This document shows positions 1 to 8,387 of a DNA stretch of 8,387 bases, piece by piece. The notes under the pieces were generated by a model. That model was not told the DNA's origin and did no database searches. It saw nothing but the letters and a program-made list of their open reading frames with translations. The position numbers and the translations under genes were made by a program. This stretch comes from Candidatus Iainarchaeum sp. (lineage in GTDB: Archaea > Iainarchaeota > Iainarchaeia > Iainarchaeales > 0-14-0-20-34-12), in NCBI GenBank assembly GCA_030649345.1, contig JAUSKK010000013.1, positions 1 through 8,387 on the forward strand. Reading direction: 5' to 3'. Position 1 is the first letter of the stretch. Each line of letters begins with the position of its first letter.

Positions 1-29
1 AACAAACACTAATACATATAGGTACTAAA

Positions 30-116
30 ATGCAAACAAAAAATAAACTTGAAAATAATCAATCTGATTCAAAATTTGTTTCATTTAGCAACCGCTTTTT
101 TAGCTATTGGTTTTAA
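30..116 (+). CDS. 28-codon mini-ORF MQTKNKLENNQSDSKFVSFSNRFFSYWF*. Either a candidate aromatic-codon-rich leader peptide or the C-terminal tail of an upstream gene cut by the window edge
   Basis: Hand translation: ATG 30-32, TAA 114-116. 7 of the last 13 codons are Phe/Tyr/Trp (TTT 75, 84, 96, 99, 111; TAT 105; TGG 108). Weak SD-like AGGT at 20-23. Caveat: this frame is open from position 3, so it may continue leftward out of the window. Confidence 0.3.
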   Translation: MQTKNKLENNQSDSKFVSFSNRFFSYWF

Positions 117-153
117 TCCACGGCACTAACAATCTTTTTCTTAGTTGCCCGGA
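117..153 (+). promoter_or_regulatory. Imperfect RNA hairpin directly after the mini-ORF stop. Its 3' arm runs into a GGAGG (151-155). The loop contains a T5 run (135-139).
   Basis: Manual pairing: 122-125 with 146-149, 126-129 with 141-144 (T145 bulged), outer 117-119 with 151-153, 11-nt loop 130-140. No U-run follows the stem, so it is not a classic intrinsic terminator. The T5 could act as an archaeal-style oligo-T terminator for an upstream gene. Confidence 0.25.
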
Positions 154-163
154 GGGATTCAAT

Positions 164-182
164 CTATAAAATTAAATAATAT
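164..182 (+). promoter_or_regulatory. A/T-rich TATA-like stretch (ctataaaattaaataatat); possible operon promoter (archaeal TATA box, or bacterial -10 TAATAT at 177-182)
   Basis: Position only: about 20-35 nt upstream of the SD/ATG at 189-203. AT-rich background makes such matches common. No convincing BRE or -35 found. Confidence 0.2.
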
Positions 183-200
183 TAAATTGAGGTGGAAAAT

Positions 201-344
201 ATGAAAACAGGAAAACAAAAAATAAATCAAATAAAAAAAGTCAGTAGTAAAGAAATGAACTTAGTGGAACAAGCTCAAAGTCAAGGTCTTTGGCAGTCGT
301 GTCTTTATCAACAGCCCTGTCTTTTTGGCGAACATTGTAATTAA
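201..344 (+). CDS. 47-aa small ORF MKTGKQKINQIKKVSSKEMNLVEQAQSQGLWQSCLYQQPCLFGEHCN*. Unknown function; candidate leader or translational-coupling ORF for the operon
   Basis: Hand translation: ATG 201, TAA 342-344. Strong SD GAGGTGG at 189-195, 5 nt before the ATG, as good as any SD in the window. Overlaps the next gene's TTG start (325) by 20 nt. Lys-rich N-terminal half. C-terminal tail has three L-aromatic...Cys units (LWQSC, LYQQPC, LFGEHC). Confidence 0.5.
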   Translation: MKTGKQKINQIKKVSSKEMNLVEQAQSQGLWQSCLYQQPCLFGEHCN

Positions 345-1110
345 AGTCGGTGGTTCTTGTCTTAAAACAAAACAAGACTTTGAACAAGTCAGTCGAAAAA
401 TAAAAAATTTAATTCAAAAAGGACTGCGTCCTATTTTAGTTGTTTCAGCGGTTAATGGCACAACCAATAGTTTATTGAATATTTTACCGGATTCACAAAC
501 CAAAAAAGAAAACGAATTGCGGGACTCTGTTTTAGCCGAAGGGGAAATTTTAAGTGCTAAAATTCTTGCAGCTCATTTATCCAATCATCAAATTTTAACT
601 GAAACTATTTTGCCCAATGATTCAAATTGGTTTATTGTAACCAATAATCAACACGGGGATGCTGAGATTTTAGCTAATATTACTGAGAGAAAAGCTCAAA
701 AAGCATTGAATGTTTTATTGGCTAAAAATATTGTGCCTGTAATACCGGGTTTTATTGGAATTACTTTAAGTGGAAAACTCACTACTTTGGGCCGCGGTGG
801 TTCGGATACTACTGCCATTGCGATTGGTAATGCTCTTCACTGCAAAGAAATTATTTTGCTAAAAGATGTTGAAGGCATATGTGCTGTGGACCCTAAGAAA
901 AACAAGAATGCTAAAGTTATTTCCAATTTAAGTCCAAGCCAAGCCATTGAAATTTCGTTGAATGGCGGAAAAGTAGTTCATCATAAAGCTTTGGCATTAA
1001 AACGCCAAGTTTCCATTCGCGTTGTTAGCAAAGATAAAGAAAATATTTTGTCAGGTGGAACTTTGATTGAAGGAGTTCTTGAAACTAAATTAATTATAGG
1101 GGGCAATTAA
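325..1110 (+). CDS. Aspartokinase-like amino acid kinase, catalytic domain only (261 aa, no C-terminal ACT domains)
   Basis: Aspartokinase-type motifs: IVIKVGGS (N-terminal KxGGS), LVVSAVNGTTNSLL, AEGEILSAKILAAHL, PGFIG...TLGRGGSDTTAIAIG, LLKDVEGICAVDPKK, GGKVVHHKAL, GGTLIEG near the C-terminus. TTG start with no SD. Stop TAA 1108-1110 abuts the next ATG. Full-length aspartokinases are about 400-470 aa with two ACT domains. Confidence 0.8.
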   Translation: MANIVIKVGGSCLKTKQDFEQVSRKIKNLIQKGLRPILVVSAVNGTTNSLLNILPDSQTKKENELRDSVLAEGEILSAKILAAHLSNHQILTETILPNDSNWFIVTNNQHGDAEILANITERKAQKALNVLLAKNIVPVIPGFIGITLSGKLTTLGRGGSDTTAIAIGNALHCKEIILLKDVEGICAVDPKKNKNAKVISNLSPSQAIEISLNGGKVVHHKALALKRQVSIRVVSKDKENILSGGTLIEGVLETKLIIGGN

Positions 1111-1887
1111 ATGTTAGGAAAACAAATTCGCTTGAAACGGATTACCAAAAAAGGAAAAGCAGTTATTATTCCTATGGATCACGGAACTACAGAAGGGCCT
1201 ATTCCTGGTTTAGAAAACATGGAAAAAATGGTGAAAAAAATTGAAAAAGGAAAAGCCACAGCAATCCTAGTTCATAAAGGTATTTTGCAAAACTTAAACC
1301 ATGTGCCCAATTGTGGTGTAATTCTGCATTTGTCGGCATCCACTAAATTAGGTCAAGATCCAGAGCATAAAGTTTTGGTGGCCAGTGTACAAGAAGCGAT
1401 TCATTTGGGTGCTGATGCTGTTTCCATTCATGTAAATATTGGGGGAAATATTCATGAAAACAGTATGCTGGAATCTTTGGGAAAAATTTCCAAAGACTGT
1501 CTGGAAAATCAAATTCCCTTGCTGGCTATGATGTACCCTAGAGGCAAAAATATTGCCAAAATTGATCCGGAAACAATTTCGCATATAGCTAGAATTGGCG
1601 GAGAATTGGGTGCAGATTTAGTGAAAACGGTTTACACTGGAAATGAAAAGTCATTCAAAAAAATTGTAGATAGTTGTCCTGTGCCTATCGTAATTGCCGG
1701 CGGCCCAAAATGTTCGACGGATCAAGAAGTATTGGAAATGGTGAAAGGAGCAATGAATGCAGGTGCAATTGGAGTATCTTTAGGACGAAATGCATTTCAG
1801 CATAAAAATCCTGTGGCCATGGTTCGTGCGATTCGAGAAATTGTTGTAAAAAATGCAGAAGTAAAAGATGCATTGGAATTGATGTGA
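1111..1887 (+). CDS. aroA': 2-amino-3,7-dideoxy-D-threo-hept-6-ulosonate (ADH) synthase, DhnA-family class I aldolase (archaeal-type step 1 of shikimate pathway)
   Basis: DhnA/class I aldolase motifs IIPMDHG, GADAVSIHVN, LLAMMYPRG, GADLVKT (Schiff-base Lys region), VIAGGPK, GVSLGRN. Lies directly upstream of DHQ synthase II. G-rich SD AGGGGG at 1098-1103. Context argues against a glycolytic FBP aldolase, but sequence alone does not exclude it. Confidence 0.8.
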   Translation: MLGKQIRLKRITKKGKAVIIPMDHGTTEGPIPGLENMEKMVKKIEKGKATAILVHKGILQNLNHVPNCGVILHLSASTKLGQDPEHKVLVASVQEAIHLGADAVSIHVNIGGNIHENSMLESLGKISKDCLENQIPLLAMMYPRGKNIAKIDPETISHIARIGGELGADLVKTVYTGNEKSFKKIVDSCPVPIVIAGGPKCSTDQEVLEMVKGAMNAGAIGVSLGRNAFQHKNPVAMVRAIREIVVKNAEVKDALELM

Positions 1888-1896
1888 GGTGAAATC

Positions 1897-2823
1897 ATGA
1901 AAGCTGTGATGATAAAAACTAAAAATAAAGAAGTTCAACGAGATGCTGTATTGGCAGGGTTTCAAGTAATGACCAATCCTGTGCCTTTAGCAGTTATTGA
2001 AACTACGCAAGATGAAGACCAAGCAATTCAAGCAGCCAAAAATAAAGAATGTTTGTATGTAAAGTGTGCGAATTGGAAAATTATTCCTTTGGAAAATTTA
2101 ATTGCAAAGACTAGATCTAAAACAAAATTAATTGCAGTAGTAAATTCTGCAAATGAAGCTAAACTTGCATTAAATGTAATGGAAATTGGAGTGGATGGAA
2201 TATTGTTGGAAACAGAACAGTCTAGTGAAGTAAAAAAATTGCAAAAGATTCTAGAAGAATCAACTGCATTAAAACCAATGCAATTAGAAACTGCTACAGT
2301 TATCCAAGTTTTGCCTTTGGGGAATGGTGCACGGTCTTGCATTGATACTTGTACTTTAATGGAAGAAAACCAAGGCTTGTTGGTAGGCAGTTCATCTCAA
2401 GGCATGTTATTGATTCAAGCTGAAGTAACTGTTAATTCTTTGGTAAATACTCGTCCCTTTCGAGTTAATGCAGGTGCAGTTTCCCTGTACACTTTGATGT
2501 CCAATGCTAAAACTCAGTATTTGGAAGAAGCTAAAGCTGGAGTTGAAGTTTTAATTATTGACAAAAAAGGGCAATGCATTCAATCCAATGTGGTTCGAAA
2601 TAAAATTGAAATTAGACCTTTAGTTTTAGTTGAAGCACAATCAAGCACTGGAAAAATTGCGAAGGTTATTCTTCAAAATGCTGAAACTGTTCGCTTAATG
2701 ACACCTCAGAAAAGCAAGGCTGTAACTGAACTAAAAAAAGGAGATACTATTTTAGGTCATTTTGAAGAAGGCGGACGCCATTTTGGAATGTTGTTGAAAG
2801 AAGAAACCATTATTGAAAAATGA
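1897..2823 (+). CDS. aroB': 3-dehydroquinate synthase II (archaeal-type, oxidative deamination/cyclisation of ADH)
   Basis: 308 aa. Contains RPFRVNAGAV, which I recall as conserved in the DHQS-II family. Sits between the DhnA aldolase and the downstream shikimate genes, with no classical AroB present. SD GAGGTGA at 1886-1892. Confidence 0.8.
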   Translation: MKAVMIKTKNKEVQRDAVLAGFQVMTNPVPLAVIETTQDEDQAIQAAKNKECLYVKCANWKIIPLENLIAKTRSKTKLIAVVNSANEAKLALNVMEIGVDGILLETEQSSEVKKLQKILEESTALKPMQLETATVIQVLPLGNGARSCIDTCTLMEENQGLLVGSSSQGMLLIQAEVTVNSLVNTRPFRVNAGAVSLYTLMSNAKTQYLEEAKAGVEVLIIDKKGQCIQSNVVRNKIEIRPLVLVEAQSSTGKIAKVILQNAETVRLMTPQKSKAVTELKKGDTILGHFEEGGRHFGMLLKEETIIEK

Positions 2824-2833
2824 GGCTGAAAAA

Positions 2834-3925
2834 ATGAATATTGTATTAACTGGATTCATGGGCTGTGGAAAAACTACGGTTGGAAAAGCTCTTGCTGAAA
2901 AAATAAAAAAAAGATTTATAGACACTGATGAATTGATTCAGAAAACTGCAGGAAAAACAATTTCAGAAATCTTTGCGGAACAAGGGGAAAAAAAATTTCG
3001 AAAATTGGAATCCAAAACCATTTCTCAGGTAAGCAAATTGGATAACCAAGTAATTGCTACTGGCGGAGGTTCTGTGTTAAATCCTGAAAACTTAAAAGTA
3101 TTAAATCGCAATGGTGTAATTTTATTTTTGAACACTAGTAACGATGTTATTTTGAAAAGAATTGAAAATCAAAAGAATCGACCATTGATGTCTGTGCAAA
3201 ATCAAAAAAAACAAGTTCAGAAATTAATGAAAAAACGAATGCCGTTTTACACACAAGCAGATTATATTTTAGATGCCAATTGTTCAATAACTGAAATTGT
3301 AAATGAAATACAGCGATTGCTTTGCAATCTCCAAGTATGCACAACTGTAACCAATAAAAAAGAACTGGCAAAAGCACTTGAATTTGAAACAGATTTAATT
3401 GAATTACGTTTAGATCAATTGCATGAAAACTTGAATGAACTGATAACCATATCGAGTGTTCCAGTAATTGTAAAAGTGCAATTTTTGAATCAATTACCTG
3501 AAGTCATTCGTTCACCTGCCGCTATTGTGGATTTGGATATTGAACAAGCAGATGATTTTGCAATTCAACAAATTCGAAGAAAACAAAAATTAGTATTGCT
3601 TTCATTTCACGATTTTCAAAAAACACCTTCCCTTGCTCAATTGACTAAAATTTTGAATCAACAAATGCAGAATGCAGATATTGGGAAAATTGTTACGTTG
3701 GGAACTAACACAGAAGACATTGATGCCATTATTGGTTTGCTAAAAATTGCAAAGAATGCCGGTTTTCCTTTAATTGCATTTTTAATGGGCGAATCTCAAA
3801 AACATACACGTACATTAATGTGCTTGAAGGGAAGCCTGCTTACGTACGCTCATGTAAACCAACCACTCGCAGTAGGGCAATCTAGTTTACAAGAACTGAA
3901 ACAAAAGGAGGCTTGCAGTGTCTGA
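2834..3925 (+). CDS. aroK/aroD: Bifunctional shikimate kinase (P-loop AroK type) / 3-dehydroquinate dehydratase type I (AroD) fusion
   Basis: N-terminal half: Walker A GFMGCGKTT, IDTD, FRKLE, ATGGGS, NRPL (AroK motifs). C-terminal half from about nt 3326: DLIELRLD, LLSFHDF.KTP (catalytic His), ADIGKIVT (Schiff-base Lys). One uninterrupted frame with no internal SD or start at the junction. I prefer ATG 2834 (SD GAGG at 2822-2825) over the ORF-track TTG at 2813. Confidence 0.88.
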   Translation: MNIVLTGFMGCGKTTVGKALAEKIKKRFIDTDELIQKTAGKTISEIFAEQGEKKFRKLESKTISQVSKLDNQVIATGGGSVLNPENLKVLNRNGVILFLNTSNDVILKRIENQKNRPLMSVQNQKKQVQKLMKKRMPFYTQADYILDANCSITEIVNEIQRLLCNLQVCTTVTNKKELAKALEFETDLIELRLDQLHENLNELITISSVPVIVKVQFLNQLPEVIRSPAAIVDLDIEQADDFAIQQIRRKQKLVLLSFHDFQKTPSLAQLTKILNQQMQNADIGKIVTLGTNTEDIDAIIGLLKIAKNAGFPLIAFLMGESQKHTRTLMCLKGSLLTYAHVNQPLAVGQSSLQELKQKEACSV

Positions 3926-4775
3926 AGAAAAAATTTTTGGATTAATCGGAGAACACATTCAGCATTCTTTGTCTCCGGCAATTCATAATCACGCTTTTCA
4001 AAAAATTGGATTGAATGCGCATTATATTTTACTGGACACTCCAAAAAATAAACTTATTAAAACCATTGAACTAATTCGACAAACTCCAGTTACTGGTGGA
4101 AATGTGACTATACCATTTAAAACAGAAATAATAAATCATTTGGATCAATTAGATCCAAGCGCGCAAACTGTGGCAGCTGTGAATACCTTTGTGAATGAAA
4201 AAGGAAAATTGACTGGATACAATACCGATGGATTGGGTGCCATTAAAGCTATTCAGACTAAGTTAAATCCTAAAAATAAAGTTATAACTATTTTAGGCTG
4301 TGGCGGTGCAGGCAAAGCCATTGCTCATAGCTTGCAGTTAGCTGGAGTTTCTAAAATTAATTTAATGGATTTAAATAAAACAAAAGCGTGTGAATTAGCT
4401 AAAAAATTAGAAGAACATTCTAAACACAAACAAATTACGGTTGTAATTAATACTGAACAAGAATTACTGAATGAATTGAAAAAAACAGATATTTTGATTA
4501 ATTGCAGTCCAATAGGCATGAGTCCAAATGCGGATGATTCGCCTATTTCAAAACAATTATTGCATTCCAGTTTGACTGTTTTAGATATTGTCTACAATCC
4601 AATTCAAACAAAATTAATTACGGACGCAAAAAAACTTGGCTGCACCGTGATTACTGGTGAAAAAATGTTATTCGAACAAGCGTTAGCTTCTTTTGAAATT
4701 TTTACAGGAAAAAAAGCACCGCGTTTAGAAATGCTGCAAGCACTTGAAACGGAGTTGAAACGGAATGGAAATTAA
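3918..4775 (+). CDS. aroE: Shikimate 5-dehydrogenase
   Basis: Motifs HSLSPAIHN, GGNVTIPFK, GYNTDG, Rossmann GCGGAGKA. GTG start with SD AAGGAGG at 3905-3911. 8-nt overlap with the upstream gene. Confidence 0.92.
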   Translation: MSEEKIFGLIGEHIQHSLSPAIHNHAFQKIGLNAHYILLDTPKNKLIKTIELIRQTPVTGGNVTIPFKTEIINHLDQLDPSAQTVAAVNTFVNEKGKLTGYNTDGLGAIKAIQTKLNPKNKVITILGCGGAGKAIAHSLQLAGVSKINLMDLNKTKACELAKKLEEHSKHKQITVVINTEQELLNELKKTDILINCSPIGMSPNADDSPISKQLLHSSLTVLDIVYNPIQTKLITDAKKLGCTVITGEKMLFEQALASFEIFTGKKAPRLEMLQALETELKRNGN

Positions 4776-6042
4776 ACTTAAGTCTTCAGGTGTTTGTGGA
4801 AAACTAAATGCACCTTCTTCTAAAAGTCATACGCATCGCGCTATTCTTGCAAGTATTTTATCTGAACAAAAAACAACAGTGATTAATCCTTTGACTTGTG
4901 ATGATACTTTGATTTCACTTAAAATTGCAAAAGCATTAAATGTGCAAGTAGAAAAACAGAAAAATAATCTTTGTTTTAGTCGTGAACAATTTCAAACAAA
5001 TCAGACAAAAATTAATTGCCAAGGTTCTGGAACAAGCTTACGTTTTTTTACCCCTGTGTGCAGTTTGGGAACAAAACCTATGACTTTGACTGGCAATACT
5101 TCTTTGCTAAAAAGACCTATGGGTGATTTGATAATTGCTTTAAACACAATTGGAATTAGCTGTAAATCTATTGAAAATAATGGTTTGCCGCCTATTTTTA
5201 TTCAACCTGGAAAAATAAAAGGAGGTTCAATTGAAATTTCAGGAATGATTAGTTCGCAATTTATCTCAGCACTATTGTTTATAGCACCATTTGCTGAAAA
5301 TCCAACCAGAATTAATGTTATTGGTAATCTTGAATCCAAGCCGTACGTGCAAATGACTTTAGATGTATTGCATGAATTCGGAATTCGAGTTGTGCAGTCT
5401 GAAAATTTAAATCATTTAATAATTTCAGGGAATCAATCGTTTAAAAGTCATGCGATTCAAGTAGAAGGCGATTATTCTTCAGCTGCATTTTTGCTAGCTG
5501 CCGGTGCCCTGACTGGAAAAGTAATTGTAGATAATTTACTTAAACAATCCAGTCAAGGTGACAAACAAATTATTGAACTATTGAGCGAAATGAATGCACA
5601 AATTAAAGTAAATAAAAATAAAGTTCAAGTAGAAAAATCAGACCTGAAAGGAATTAACATTAATGTAGAAAATATTCCGGATCTAGTTCCAATTTTAGCA
5701 GTTCTTGGAACTCAAGCGCAAGGGAAAACAATAATTGAAAATGCAGCTAGATTGCGATTTAAAGAAAGTGACAGATTAAATGCCATTTGTACTGAACTCC
5801 AAAAAATGGGTGCTCAAATTGAAGAAAAACAGGATTCTTTGGTGATTTACGGGAAAACAAAATTAAAAGGTGCAAAAATTAATTCGCATGAAGATCATAG
5901 AATTGCCATGGCGTGTGCAATTGCTGGCTTGACAGCTAATGGAACTACAAAAATTCAAAATGCGGAATGTGTAAGCAAAAGTTATCCTTTGTTTTTTTCA
6001 GATCTTGAAAAAATTGGCGGTGAAATGGAATGCAAGAATTAA
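4765..6042 (+). CDS. aroA: 3-phosphoshikimate 1-carboxyvinyltransferase (EPSP synthase)
   Basis: 425 aa. LNAPSSKSHTHRAIL (archaeal-like N-terminal motif), LKRPMGDL, KESDRL, HEDHRIAMA. 11-nt overlap with aroE. Confidence 0.94.
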   Translation: MEIKLKSSGVCGKLNAPSSKSHTHRAILASILSEQKTTVINPLTCDDTLISLKIAKALNVQVEKQKNNLCFSREQFQTNQTKINCQGSGTSLRFFTPVCSLGTKPMTLTGNTSLLKRPMGDLIIALNTIGISCKSIENNGLPPIFIQPGKIKGGSIEISGMISSQFISALLFIAPFAENPTRINVIGNLESKPYVQMTLDVLHEFGIRVVQSENLNHLIISGNQSFKSHAIQVEGDYSSAAFLLAAGALTGKVIVDNLLKQSSQGDKQIIELLSEMNAQIKVNKNKVQVEKSDLKGININVENIPDLVPILAVLGTQAQGKTIIENAARLRFKESDRLNAICTELQKMGAQIEEKQDSLVIYGKTKLKGAKINSHEDHRIAMACAIAGLTANGTTKIQNAECVSKSYPLFFSDLEKIGGEMECKN

Positions 6043-7115
6043 ATAAATTGCGTGAAAAAATTGATGAAATTGATTCGGACCTAATAAAATTACTTGGAAC
6101 TCGTGCTCAGGTAAGCAAAGAAATTCTGAAAATAAAACAAAAGAAAAAATTAACTGTTTTAGATCCTGTTCGAGAAAAAAAGGTAATTCAACATTGCATT
6201 ACCTTGGCTAAAAAAGAAGGGATTGAAGAAGAAGTAATTTTGCCAGTGATTCAACAAATCTTGAATTTATCTAAATCAATTCAAAAACCAAAGATAACTG
6301 TTGTAGCTATTCAAGGAAAGCAAGGTAGTTTTAGTGCTTTATTGGCTAGTAAACTTTTCATTAAAACAAAGTTATTGGAAGAAGAACAATTTGAAGAAGT
6401 AGTTGAATATGTAGAAAAAAATATTGCTGAATTTGGAATATTGCCAGTTGAAAATTCAACGACTGGCAGAATTCAAGGAAATATTGAATTATTGGTAAAT
6501 GCGAATATTGCAATTACTCAAGAAGTAGTATTGCCTGTGAATCATTGTTTGATTGCTAAAGGAAAATTGTCTTTAAATCAAATAAAACAAGTATACGCGC
6601 ATCCGCAAGCATTGTTTCAATGTAAGAATTTTTTGAAAAAATTAAAAAATGCTGAAATTATTGCATTTAATGATGGTGCGGCTGCTGTAAAAAAATTGGA
6701 AAAAAAAGGTACTGCTTTGATTGCCAGCAAAGATATTGTTCGACATCACAAAGTTGCAATTGTTCAAGAAAGCATTCAAGATTCTGCTGTAAACCAAACA
6801 AAGTTTTTTGTTGTCCAAAACAGTAAAAATATGAGCTTAATTGGCACTAAAACAACTATTTTGTTTACAGTGTCTCATAAAACAGGTGCTTTGATGCGTG
6901 TTTTGAATGTATTTGCTCAACATAAAATAAATTTGATGAAATTGGAGTCTATTCCTTTAACTGGAATGCCTTGGGAGTATTTATTTTGGGTTGACTTGGA
7001 AGGAGATTTGACTAATAAAAATATTGCAAATGGAATAAAATTAGCAAAACAAAATTGTGGGATTTTGAAAATATTGGGAAGTTATAAAACACTTAAATTG
7101 GAAAATGAGGTATAA
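6030..7115 (+). CDS. pheA: Bifunctional chorismate mutase (AroQ type) / prephenate dehydratase with C-terminal ACT domain (P-protein)
   Basis: N-terminal LREKIDEIDSDLIKLL...R...K...DPVRE (AroQ). PDT core VAIQGKQGSFS, LPVENSTTG, VYAHPQAL, NQTKFFVV. ACT region GALMRVL...ESIP...YLFWVDLEG. SD GGTGA at 6019-6023. 13-nt overlap with aroA. Confidence 0.92.
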   Translation: MQELNKLREKIDEIDSDLIKLLGTRAQVSKEILKIKQKKKLTVLDPVREKKVIQHCITLAKKEGIEEEVILPVIQQILNLSKSIQKPKITVVAIQGKQGSFSALLASKLFIKTKLLEEEQFEEVVEYVEKNIAEFGILPVENSTTGRIQGNIELLVNANIAITQEVVLPVNHCLIAKGKLSLNQIKQVYAHPQALFQCKNFLKKLKNAEIIAFNDGAAAVKKLEKKGTALIASKDIVRHHKVAIVQESIQDSAVNQTKFFVVQNSKNMSLIGTKTTILFTVSHKTGALMRVLNVFAQHKINLMKLESIPLTGMPWEYLFWVDLEGDLTNKNIANGIKLAKQNCGILKILGSYKTLKLENEV

Positions 7116-7117
7116 AA

Positions 7118-7852
7118 ATGGAAATTGGAATTATTGGATTTGGGCGATTGGGCCAATTGCTGGCAAAACATTTAGCTAAACGCAATACTGTTTTTGTTAA
7201 TGATCGCAAAAATAAAAAAAGTTTAGTTCGCAAACTAAATGTGACTCAAGTGTCTGTTCAAGAATGTGCTAAAAAAGAAATGGTTTTGCTTTGCGTGCCT
7301 ATATCTCAACTAGAGTTTGTTTTGCAAAAATGTAAAAATTATTTTAAAGCCGGTTCTTTAATTATGGATACGTGTACTGTGAAACAATTTCCTTGTGCAG
7401 TTATGAAAAAAGAAATTCCAAAAAACTGTGAGATTGTAGGAACTCATCCTTTGTTCGGACCGGACAGTGCAAAAACAACTTTGAAAAACCATTCGATTGT
7501 TTTATGTCCTGTGCGAATTAAAAAAATTAAAAAAGTTAAATTGTTTTTTGAAAGACTTGGGCTTAAAGTGATTATTGCGAGTCCTAGAAAACACGATCAA
7601 GATATGGCCCGATCTGTTTGTTTGCTGCATTTTTTAGGAAAGGCTTTGAAAAAATTAAATCTAAAAAAAGTTCAATTAAGCACGCCTACGCATCAAGATT
7701 TAATTAAACTACTTTCTATTGTAGAAAATGATTCCAATCAATTGTTTCAAGATATGCATGTTTTTAATTTATTCTCTAAAAAAATTCGACAAAATTTGAT
7801 GAATGAACTCCGAATTCTTGATCAAACTTTGAATACAAAGGTGATTTCATGA
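7118..7852 (+). CDS. tyrA: Prephenate (or arogenate) dehydrogenase, short form without ACT domain
   Basis: N-terminal Rossmann IGIIGFGRLG and the TyrA-type motif GTHPLFGP. SD GAGGT at 7107-7111. Substrate preference cannot be read from the sequence. Confidence 0.82.
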   Translation: MEIGIIGFGRLGQLLAKHLAKRNTVFVNDRKNKKSLVRKLNVTQVSVQECAKKEMVLLCVPISQLEFVLQKCKNYFKAGSLIMDTCTVKQFPCAVMKKEIPKNCEIVGTHPLFGPDSAKTTLKNHSIVLCPVRIKKIKKVKLFFERLGLKVIIASPRKHDQDMARSVCLLHFLGKALKKLNLKKVQLSTPTHQDLIKLLSIVENDSNQLFQDMHVFNLFSKKIRQNLMNELRILDQTLNTKVIS

Positions 7853-8387
7853 CTTTTTCGTTTGGAACTTGTTTGAAAATGAAGTTATTTGGAGAAAGTC
7901 ATGGGCCTTGTGTTGGAGTAACGATTGAAGGTTTTCCTGTTGGTATTAAAATTAAGTTAGATCAAATACAAACTGAATTGGATAAACGCAAGCCAGGACA
8001 AAGTTTGTTGACTACCCAACGAAAAGAGCTAGACCAACTTGAAGTGCAAAGTGGTTTGTTTGAAAATAAAAGTACTGGTTCACCCATTACTATGTTAGTC
8101 AAAAATCAGGATAACATTTCAGCTCACTACGATGAACTAAAAATTACGCCTAGACCTGGACATGCTGATTTTCCTGCTCAAGTAAAATACAATGGATTAA
8201 ACGATCATAGGGGTGGAGGAATTTTTTCAGGTAGAATGACTGCAGGAATAGTCATGGCTGGAGCTTTAGCTAAACAATTACCCGAAATGCAAGGAATTCA
8301 AATAACTACTTACATAAAACAAATTGGATCCATTCGATCTGAAAACAATCAAGGGCTTACGCTGGAAATGGAAAAATTAATTTTGAA
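7849..8387 (+). CDS. aroC: Chorismate synthase, 5' portion (continues past the window end)
   Basis: Not in the ORF track. Hand translation from ATG 7849 (ATGA overlap with the tyrA stop, SD AAGGTGA at 7838-7844): MTFSFGTCLKMKLFGESHGPCVGVTIEG...RKPGQS...RPGHADF...HRGGGIFSGRMTAG. GESHG and RPGHAD are chorismate synthase signatures. No stop through 8387. Confidence 0.92.
   Translation, partial: MTFSFGTCLKMKLFGESHGPCVGVTIEGFPVGIKIKLDQIQTELDKRKPGQSLLTTQRKELDQLEVQSGLFENKSTGSPITMLVKNQDNISAHYDELKITPRPGHADFPAQVKYNGLNDHRGGGIFSGRMTAGIVMAGALAKQLPEMQGIQITTYIKQIGSIRSENNQGLTLEMEKLIL

Follow-up and report, generated by a model that had tools for sequence, protein, structure and literature searches.

An upstream reading frame overlapping the aspartokinase gene and a candidate aromatic-codon leader at the head of a DPANN aro operon

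In bacteria, the sensing of amino acid supply through a leader peptide is a classic mechanism, and aromatic operons have leader-peptide attenuators of this kind in pheL, trpL and the pheST leader. The prfB gene for release factor 2 is decoded by a programmed +1 frameshift at CUU UGA C with an upstream Shine-Dalgarno (SD)-like element, whilst the tandem upstream open reading frames (uORFs) of ATF4 and GCN4 work through scanning and ternary-complex levels, the last uORF overlapping the main open reading frame (ORF) out of frame; we know of no scanning in archaea. The general principle of leader-peptide attenuation (PMC1183508) and translational attenuation of the ermC/cat type, with ErmCL (PMC5499644), have been described, and coupling by termination and reinitiation has been shown experimentally in Haloferax volcanii and E. 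coli (PMC6728339, PMC10666635). Here we analyse the head of an archaeal-type aro operon (ADTH synthase/DHQS-II type, + strand, aspartokinase first) on contig JAUSKK010000013.1 of a DPANN archaeon (NCBI protein label 'Candidatus Diapherotrites archaeon', GC 33%). The window, that is the whole stretch of DNA analysed, is the entire contig of 8387 nucleotides (nt), and coordinates count from window position 1. The element in question is a 47-codon ORF, termed ORF0, which ends inside the aspartokinase (AK) gene and is itself preceded by a leader ORF. The features concerned are these.

30..116, + strand: upstream leader ORF of 28 codons, MQTKNKLENNQSDSKFVSFSNRFFSYWF followed by its stop codon, with the tail …FVSFSNRFFSYWF and stop; seven aromatics in the last 13 residues (five Phe, one Tyr, one Trp)
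115..159, + strand: hairpin starting at the leader ORF stop codon, -10.6 kcal/mol, z = -1.7
189..195, + strand: SD of ORF0, GAGGTGG, with a 5-nt spacer to ATG 201; motif and spacing as in the operon's other genes
201..344, + strand: ORF0, 47 codons, frame -1 relative to AK, with a second in-frame ATG at 255; product MKTGKQKINQIKKVSSKEMNLVEQAQSQGLWQSCLYQQPCLFGEHCN
286..326, + strand: GTCTTT three times (at 286, 301 and 319), in the ORF0 frame CTT-TGG, CTT-TAT and CTT-TTT
339..344, + strand: end of ORF0, AAT TAA (TAA at 342-344), arising from ATT AAA, the Ile-Lys of V-I-K-V-G-G in the AK frame
325..1110, + strand: AK catalytic domain, amino-acid-kinase family, 261 aa, no ACT domains (PF00696, E = 1.4e-44), in frame +1 relative to ORF0

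ORF0 is real and has a real SD. We read it, tentatively and at a probability of about 0.42, as a translated upstream cistron that would act as the ribosome entry point for an AK gene without an SD. The locus was compared with its five nearest AK loci, which are Nanoarchaeota-like (L004, L008, L011, L012 and L019, hereafter the relatives), and it corresponds fully to none of the known systems considered. With the coupled overlapping gene pairs of H. volcanii and E. coli it has in common a co-directional overlap and a downstream cistron without a usable SD; it differs in that the overlap is 20 nt in the window and 32 to 74 nt in the relatives, that the upstream partner is a 47-codon leader ORF rather than a protein gene, and that ORF0 seems to have been the 5' end of the downstream gene, since split from it. 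As in prfB, a short ORF0 is opened by an SD-AUG of its own, the main ORF follows in frame +1, and the split is conserved among orthologues. The window also offers CUU-U as a slip codon, and the relatives have an SD-like G-run 3 nt upstream of a candidate P-site codon, in a layout (GGGGGGU-CGC-CCG-UAU) that resembles the AGGGGG-UAU-CUU-UGA of prfB. Unlike prfB, there is no stop at the shift site (the A-site codons being those for Trp, Tyr and Phe), the motifs vary by lineage, and an AK-frame TTG exists, so that frameshifting is not required.

What resembles the pheL and trpL attenuators is not ORF0 but the leader ORF at 30-116, which is packed with pathway-product codons and has a conserved hairpin at once 3' of it; the differences are the archaeal host, the lack of a U-run after the hairpin, the position of ORF0 between the sensor and the first enzyme gene, and the single W, Y and F codons of ORF0 itself. 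From ermC/cat-type attenuation the locus would differ in its trigger, hungry aromatic codons rather than a drug, and in the predicted pairing between SD and leader tail, which is weak and matched by composition-matched controls. ATF4 and GCN4 share its layout, a short first uORF and then a second one overlapping the main coding sequence in another frame, whereas here both downstream starts are SD-type or SD-less. Literature searches turned up neither an archaeal example of amino acid sensing by a leader peptide, aromatic or other, nor a split aspartokinase; the DPANN leader peptide, if it functions as proposed, would extend leader-peptide attenuation to archaea for the first time.

ORF0 and the start of the aspartokinase gene

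A first-pass annotation had placed an SD at 189-195, an ATG at 201, a TAA at 342-344 and a 20-nt overlap with AK, all of which are exact. Re-reading of the sequence also bore out the Phe codon TTT 324-326 overlapping TTG 325-327, and the tail was as described (L30 from nt 288, C46 at 336-338, with C34, C40 and C46 spaced C-x5-C-x5-C). When all sequence 5' of 325 was dinucleotide-shuffled 20,000 times with the stop fixed, an ATG ORF of at least 47 codons arose in 183 of the 20,000 shuffles, and one with an SD-like pentamer as well in 2 of 20,000. A second, shorter version of the contig is present as an independent Logan assembly, on which a gene caller also predicted ORF0. The codon-usage score of ORF0 is +5 bits, halfway between the true-frame and off-frame expectations.

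TTG 325 is the first and only ATG, GTG or TTG in the AK frame after the stop at 262-264, and gives MANIVIKVGGSCL, which N-terminal alignment sets on the first strand of the AK family. That this start lacks an SD of its own was confirmed, the preceding 20 nt containing no purine-rich SD and no other SD-like motif, whilst all eight other operon starts examined have one 5-8 nt upstream (GGGGG, GAGGTG, GAGG, GGAGG, GGAG, GGCGGTG or GAGGT). The SD/ATG of ORF0 is the only SD/ATG ahead of AK, and the AK frame between 265 and 324, at -18 bits, resembles off frames (on average -20 per 20 codons) and not true frames (+12). The idea that TTG 325 is a leaderless start served by an internal promoter was considered and set aside, the sole TATA-like stretch (approximately 302-311) lying too near the start; a sigma-70-type promoter scan is not applicable to archaea. 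Gene callers assign SD-less TTG or GTG starts to this AK family and missed the short upstream ORF in most relatives; annotated starts may be wrong.

The AKs of the relatives are 40-44% identical to the window AK and 67-79% to one another, and their operon order is AK-ASD-ADTH synthase-DHQS II. All five have an SD (GAGGTG or GGAGG), 6-7 nt and an ATG opening a 24-25-codon ORF in frame -1 with respect to AK (products MLKTITKIVGGRPYRGHCPFRRSN, MLKKLAKNIVGGRPYHGRCPFSRSN, MIRELKNKIVGGRPYCGHCPFCGCN, MWKKQSKNIVGGRPYQGHCPFCRNN and MLKKLAKNIVGGRPYRGHCPFHRSN), and in all five this ORF stops at an AAT TAA within the ATT AAA of V-I-K-V-G-G, at the identical place to the window. The sole length difference among them is 3 nt and leaves the frame open, other frames holding stops. 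The ORF0/AK overlap is the best-conserved 30 nt of the relatives' whole locus (80% invariant columns), with AK-frame synonymous sites invariant in 6 of 9 overlap codons versus 19 of 200 gene-body codons; synonymous sites are saturated among the relatives, and a run of six G (G6) in the overlap is invariant nonetheless. Substitutions 5' of the Tyr codon are silent for ORF0 but change AK-frame residues, and those 3' of the Phe codon do the reverse, being silent or conservative (V/I) for AK and altering the ORF0 product; the first nine ORF0 codons look coding, and the zone open in both frames fits the AK frame better than the ORF0 frame. Judged from these alignments, the split arrangement is conserved and the overlap is under extra constraint.

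The overlap in the relatives (605-640 in L004 and equivalents) was also seen to be a GC island, at 60-67% in genomes of approximately 39% GC, with the invariant G6 inside it. This island suggests an RNA-level element besides coding. Folds of window 255-365, window 60-205 and L004 595-665 were no better than shuffles (z 0.05 to 0.69), and RNAalifold gave a hairpin in the relatives' GC-rich zone with pairs that lack two-sided compensatory changes. A pairing of the 3' arm of the leader hairpin (CGGGCG) with this zone (CGCCCG), noticed by eye, was dropped, since L004 and L008 do not covary.

The expectation that related aro loci would hold a conserved small ORF was thus borne out for position, SD, frame and stop in five of five relatives and failed for the proposed pattern of Leu-aromatic units each closed by Cys. 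LWQSC has no counterpart in the relatives, and only Y-x3-C-x-F is common to both, at a similarity that is not significant (P = 0.57); the second and third units (TGT CTT TAT and TGT CTT TTT) match the relatives' CGC CCG TAT and TGC CCG TTC, 18 nt apart in both. As an arrangement the three units are mostly one DNA hexamer, GTCTTT, tripled, and as a repeat this was rejected in turn, a hexamer tripled within 45 nt occurring approximately 1.3 times per shuffled window. Nor is Cys rare in the proteins of the window, as had been stated, since it makes up 44 of 2505 enzyme residues (1.8%); three Cys in 47 residues is marginal (P about 0.05, a Poisson estimate from that rate).

Searches for closer relatives of the window lineage found none: they gave only bacterial matches at 34-38% identity among genome contigs and five loci at 27-44% in a metagenome scan, and scans of viral contigs by DNA pattern and by protein gave no matches. 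The ORF0 product itself was all that a search of 5.8 billion proteins returned for it, and Pfam gave no match.

As to its origin, ORF0 looks like the original start and N-terminal extension of AK, split off by one base. It is read as the old 5' end because the SD-ATG of outgroup AKs in the same subfamily (L006/L014, L013, L015 and L016) is in frame and lies at a similar distance from the V-I-K codons, -57 to -63 versus -67 to -70 for the out-of-frame ORF0 ATG of the relatives. In a neighbour-joining tree the five relatives and the in-frame group are sisters (84% bootstrap), with the window outside both; either the split is ancestral or it happened on separate occasions. Three further observations concern the 5' ends of these genes. 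In L017 (470-560) the AK frame has no ATG, GTG or TTG 5' of VVIKIGG, whilst the -1 frame has GGGGGG, 8 nt and ATG CCC CCT TAA, an ORF of M-P-P-stop with a run of five C (C5) that reflects either an indel error or another recoded start. Two of the in-frame outgroups, L006 (approximately 3095-3110) and L013 (approximately 2945-2960), share ATGAATAAAACTA, a small-ORF start (MNKT…) just 5' of the AK SD. L007 (1022-1087) has an ACT-less AK (P0016) and a separate upstream ORF with SD and ATG, MKSWSDCVFRGHSFYILVKGT and stop, which ends 72 nt before the GTG start; its stretch FRGHSF resembles the relatives' YRGHCPF without reaching significance (P = 0.14).

Reinitiation, frameshifting and other explanations

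The proposal that AK translation depends on ORF0 stands as far as its setting goes, ORF0 carrying the sole SD/ATG before AK, its frame and stop being the same in five of five relatives and the overlap being constrained, whereas the coupling route is left between two options. In the one preferred for the window, ribosomes would load at GAGGTGG-ATG 201, read ORF0, stop at TAA 342 inside the V-I-K codons of AK and restart 17 nt upstream at TTG 325, ORF0 being the later of two leader stages and supplying AK with ribosomes. We infer that AK needs ORF0 in cis, that the route is reinitiation rather than frameshifting, and in which direction regulation runs. For the window, reinitiation is a guarded choice placed slightly ahead of frameshifting, which we hold to be only somewhat less likely.

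A number of points weigh against ORF0 as an entry point used in this way. Among natural coupled pairs, overlaps of 1, 4 and 8 nt are typical, and reinitiation efficiency drops steeply with distance when the restart site is 3' of the stop (PMC10666635); the overlaps given above, which in the relatives depend on the AK-frame start used, are longer. AK-frame starts are not positionally conserved in the relatives (AAG in L012 versus GTG or ATG; TCG in L008 and L019 versus TTG), and although the G6 run of the relatives could act as an SD for the GTG/ATG start, L012 has AAG in place of that start. The ORF0 stop is merely the first one forced by the ATT AAA of AK, with no sign of selection for a stop nearer the start, and the Tyr and Phe codons kept in ORF0 would slow the relay under starvation. 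Similarity between the ORF0 peptides of window and relatives is not significant by Smith-Waterman comparison with shuffles (the P of 0.57 above), and the window lineage is a singleton with no AK match above 44% identity, so that conservation of ORF0 is positional. Modelled pairing between SD and leader tail, treated below, is no stronger than with composition-preserving shuffled tails.

By the second route, a programmed +1 ribosomal frameshift, AK would be a single chain from ATG 201, its ribosome changing to the AK frame within the overlap. CUU-U occurs in the window at three sites (288, 303 and 321), the last inside a run of five T (T5) that also holds TTG 325, and the slip would most plausibly fall at CUU UUU G 321-327, with tRNA-Leu re-pairing on UUU as at prfB; only this last site could be in use, because the AK frame 5' of TTG 325 looks non-coding by its -18 bits. 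In the relatives it would fall in the invariant G6 run (GUG GGG GGU) or at CCG-UAU, 3 nt after the SD-like run, and in either case a hungry Phe or Tyr A-site codon would raise the slip rate under aromatic starvation. Consistent with this, the ORF0 SD-ATG is located where orthologues start in frame, the +1 relation of AK to ORF0 is held in the window and five divergent relatives with outgroups in frame, selection changes from the ORF0 frame to the AK frame across a zone that fits the latter better and follows nine coding-like ORF0 codons, and three of the four ORF0 Leu codons are CTT followed by T, CTT making up 10.7% of Leu codons in the operon. Slippery P-site codons are present (CUU-U three times in the window, GGG-G in the G6 of the relatives), and the doubly open zone of each lineage has a homopolymer, T5, G6 or C5, with G6 invariant despite saturated synonymous sites; homopolymers also breed mutational frameshifts, however, and may only mark how the split happened. 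There is no positionally conserved AK-frame start, and L017 has no canonical one at all, but L017 is a single 1.9-kb contig with a possible indel error and all six ORF0-bearing loci have some AK-frame start. The slip motifs moreover vary by lineage (CUU-U in the window, a G-run or CCG-U among the relatives), re-pairing of CCG on CGU is impossible, only the relatives have the SD-like run 3 nt ahead of the candidate P-site codon, and the A-site codons UGG, UAU and UUU are ordinary sense codons with no sign of slow decoding; +1 frameshifting is also rare in prokaryotes, which lowers its prior.

The remaining explanations deny ORF0 a role as entry point or give it another. We attach little likelihood to a neutral remnant of the old 5' end of AK, left by a one-base insertion with AK self-initiated at TTG 325; a split at a homopolymer, an ATG that matches the in-frame start of orthologues, an intermediate codon usage, the non-significant peptide similarity and the singleton lineage would all agree with it, whilst the SD, ATG and open frame retained in five relatives with saturated synonymous sites, the in-frame ORF0 indels, the overlap being the best-conserved stretch of the locus and an AK without the SD that every other operon gene uses all argue the contrary. 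A similarly small chance is given to ORF0 as a regulatory nascent or arrest peptide (a second sensor) or as a repressive overlapping uORF, in which ribosomes pausing or terminating over 325-344 would occlude the AK start. The nearly invariant IVGGRPY-x-G-x-CPF of the relatives, with pre-Tyr changes only synonymous in the ORF0 frame, the Y-x3-C-x-F common to the window with synonymous codon differences (TGC/TGT, TTC/TTT) and the similar stretch in the non-overlapping upstream ORF of L007 point towards a peptide; neither the window nor the L007 similarity is significant, however, and AK-frame coding plus an RNA element in a zone of such high GC could explain the invariance equally well. Occlusion by upstream ORFs is known in bacteria (PMC13285730), and would here reverse the sense of regulation for a gene without its own SD.

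That the product of ORF0 is a small Cys/His peptide with a metal-binding or redox role of its own is very improbable. The window product has C-x5-C-x5-C and His45 and the L011 version four Cys, but the relatives have one to four at varying positions, Cys34 and Cys46 are not conserved, a single Cys column is common to the window and five relatives, the last four residues vary freely in the latter, and neither a homologue nor a domain was found in the protein and Pfam searches above. No more credence is due to an assembly or sequencing indel in the T5 run, the true gene being a single in-frame ORF from ATG 201: deleting one T from 322-326 does fuse both frames, but two assemblies agree (though possibly from the same reads), and the same frame split occurs in five relatives from different samples and assemblers.

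The aromatic-rich leader ORF

ORF0 had itself been proposed to sense aromatic supply, ribosome transit over one codon each for W, Y and F gating AK expression. The comparison speaks against this, as Trp is absent in three of five relatives and elsewhere in a fourth, and a single codon each for W, Y and F among 47 is not the enrichment in end-product codons seen in attenuators. A ribosome paused at F42 would, moreover, cover TTG 325, and plain reinitiation would then lower, not raise, AK in starvation.

Such enrichment is instead found in the leader ORF that lies 5' of ORF0 at the contig edge, presumably starting at ATG 30 in a frame that is open back to nt 3, and in its equivalents in eight other lineages. 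These lie at the same place and have 6-9 aromatics per 12 residues (8-9 in the five relatives); of the seven 12-residue stretches with at least 8 aromatics on the + strand of all loci, five are these leader ORFs. Each of the following ends at a stop codon.

L004: leader tail …SSVYSFFYQYFSFYF; hairpin 490-543
L008: leader tail …TDFTSFNFFGYFYFQ; hairpin 2870-2915
L011: leader tail …SVYVFFGYWFSFYF; hairpin 2838-2898
L012: leader tail …KYVFFNYQFSFYF; hairpin 1290-1339
L019: leader tail …AYNFYYFSSFYY; hairpin 178-229
L015: leader ORF MSFVYTVFTFSYYTL
L016: leader ORF MIMFFSFSYTYFY
L021: leader tail …TWQYFYSFSYGQ, after trp genes

In L021 (1-2291) the trp genes, for an IGPS-TrpB fusion and TrpA, were seen directly 5' of the leader ORF and the AK-ASD-ADTH synthase genes. 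A candidate leader in L022, which has a Bathyarchaeia-like AK with the called N-terminus MRLWFFLFGVFE…, was rejected, this stretch probably being a miscalled T-rich upstream region with no clear leader ORF.

A hairpin begins within approximately 9 nt of the leader stop in eight of the nine loci, all eight that were folded (z -1.7 to -5.2), L021 being judged by eye only. Those of the relatives (z -2.7 to -5.2) have GC-rich stem bases, GCGCCNGG…CCGGGCGC, and inner stems of differing sequence. In none of the loci is the hairpin followed by a T-run, for which reason it is not a bacterial-type terminator, and a terminator scan of window 1-600 found none there. Ideas of a T-box or riboswitch were dropped after Rfam 15 gave no credible match in window 1-600 or in the leaders of the five relatives. 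Across the sequences compared, at least nine lineages, that of the window included, keep both leader ORF and hairpin, and the leader ORF at 30-116 is probably an aromatic-codon sensor.

The picture from folding models is consistent, though weak. With a ribosome placed 6-12 codons short of the leader stop, the next SD/ATG becomes more accessible, and with one on the stop itself accessibility falls or does not change; this applies to six or seven of the eight loci modelled. In seven of eight the leader tail takes 40-99% of the pairing modelled for the SD, and the SD/ATG is more accessible once the tail is masked; composition-matched shuffled tails give similar results and pair just as well. Together, leader ORF and hairpin would form the first stage, reporting the supply of aromatic aminoacyl-tRNA, with a ribosome slowed on aromatic codons shifting the folding around the ORF0 SD/ATG differently from one that reaches the stop. 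It is also conceivable, if improbable, that this DPANN aro operon combines a ribosome-sensed Phe/Tyr/Trp-rich leader peptide with recoding of AK by a +1 slip from the ORF0 SD-AUG (at CUU-U in the window and G6 in the relatives) that becomes commoner when an aromatic A-site codon is hungry, supply being read twice, for initiation and for frame.

At least nine archaeal lineages carry an aromatic-rich mini-ORF and hairpin ahead of an AK-led aro operon of the archaeal ASA/DHQS-II type, and in two or three of the nine the 5' end of AK appears split into a separate conserved SD-bearing ORF. Confirmation would mean that ribosome-mediated attenuation works with archaeal transcription and translation machinery, and would provide a natural test case of long-overlap reinitiation versus +1 recoding in archaea. 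It may also be a regulatory route for controlling an ACT-less AK, which is without the usual allosteric domains.

Operon context

Downstream of AK the operon continues with the following genes.

1111-1887, + strand: DeoC-family aldolase, presumably ADTH synthase
1897-2823, + strand: DHQ synthase II
2834-3925, + strand: shikimate kinase/type I dehydroquinase fusion, one protein of 363-370 aa
+ strand, further operon genes: shikimate dehydrogenase, EPSP synthase, chorismate mutase-prephenate dehydratase-ACT and prephenate dehydrogenase

The window AK, lacking ACT regulatory domains, has 261 aa versus approximately 405 aa in L004, L008, L011 and L012, and the aspartate-semialdehyde dehydrogenase (ASD) gene, which directly follows AK in all relatives, is missing from the window operon. 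End-product residues are scarce in all eight operon enzymes (325-7852), with Trp at 0.16% (4 of 2505), Tyr at 0.8% and Phe at 2.7%. A further ORF on the + strand (approximately 7879-8387), which opens with MKLFGESHGPCVGVTIEGFP and leaves the contig end, is chorismate synthase-like by eye only.

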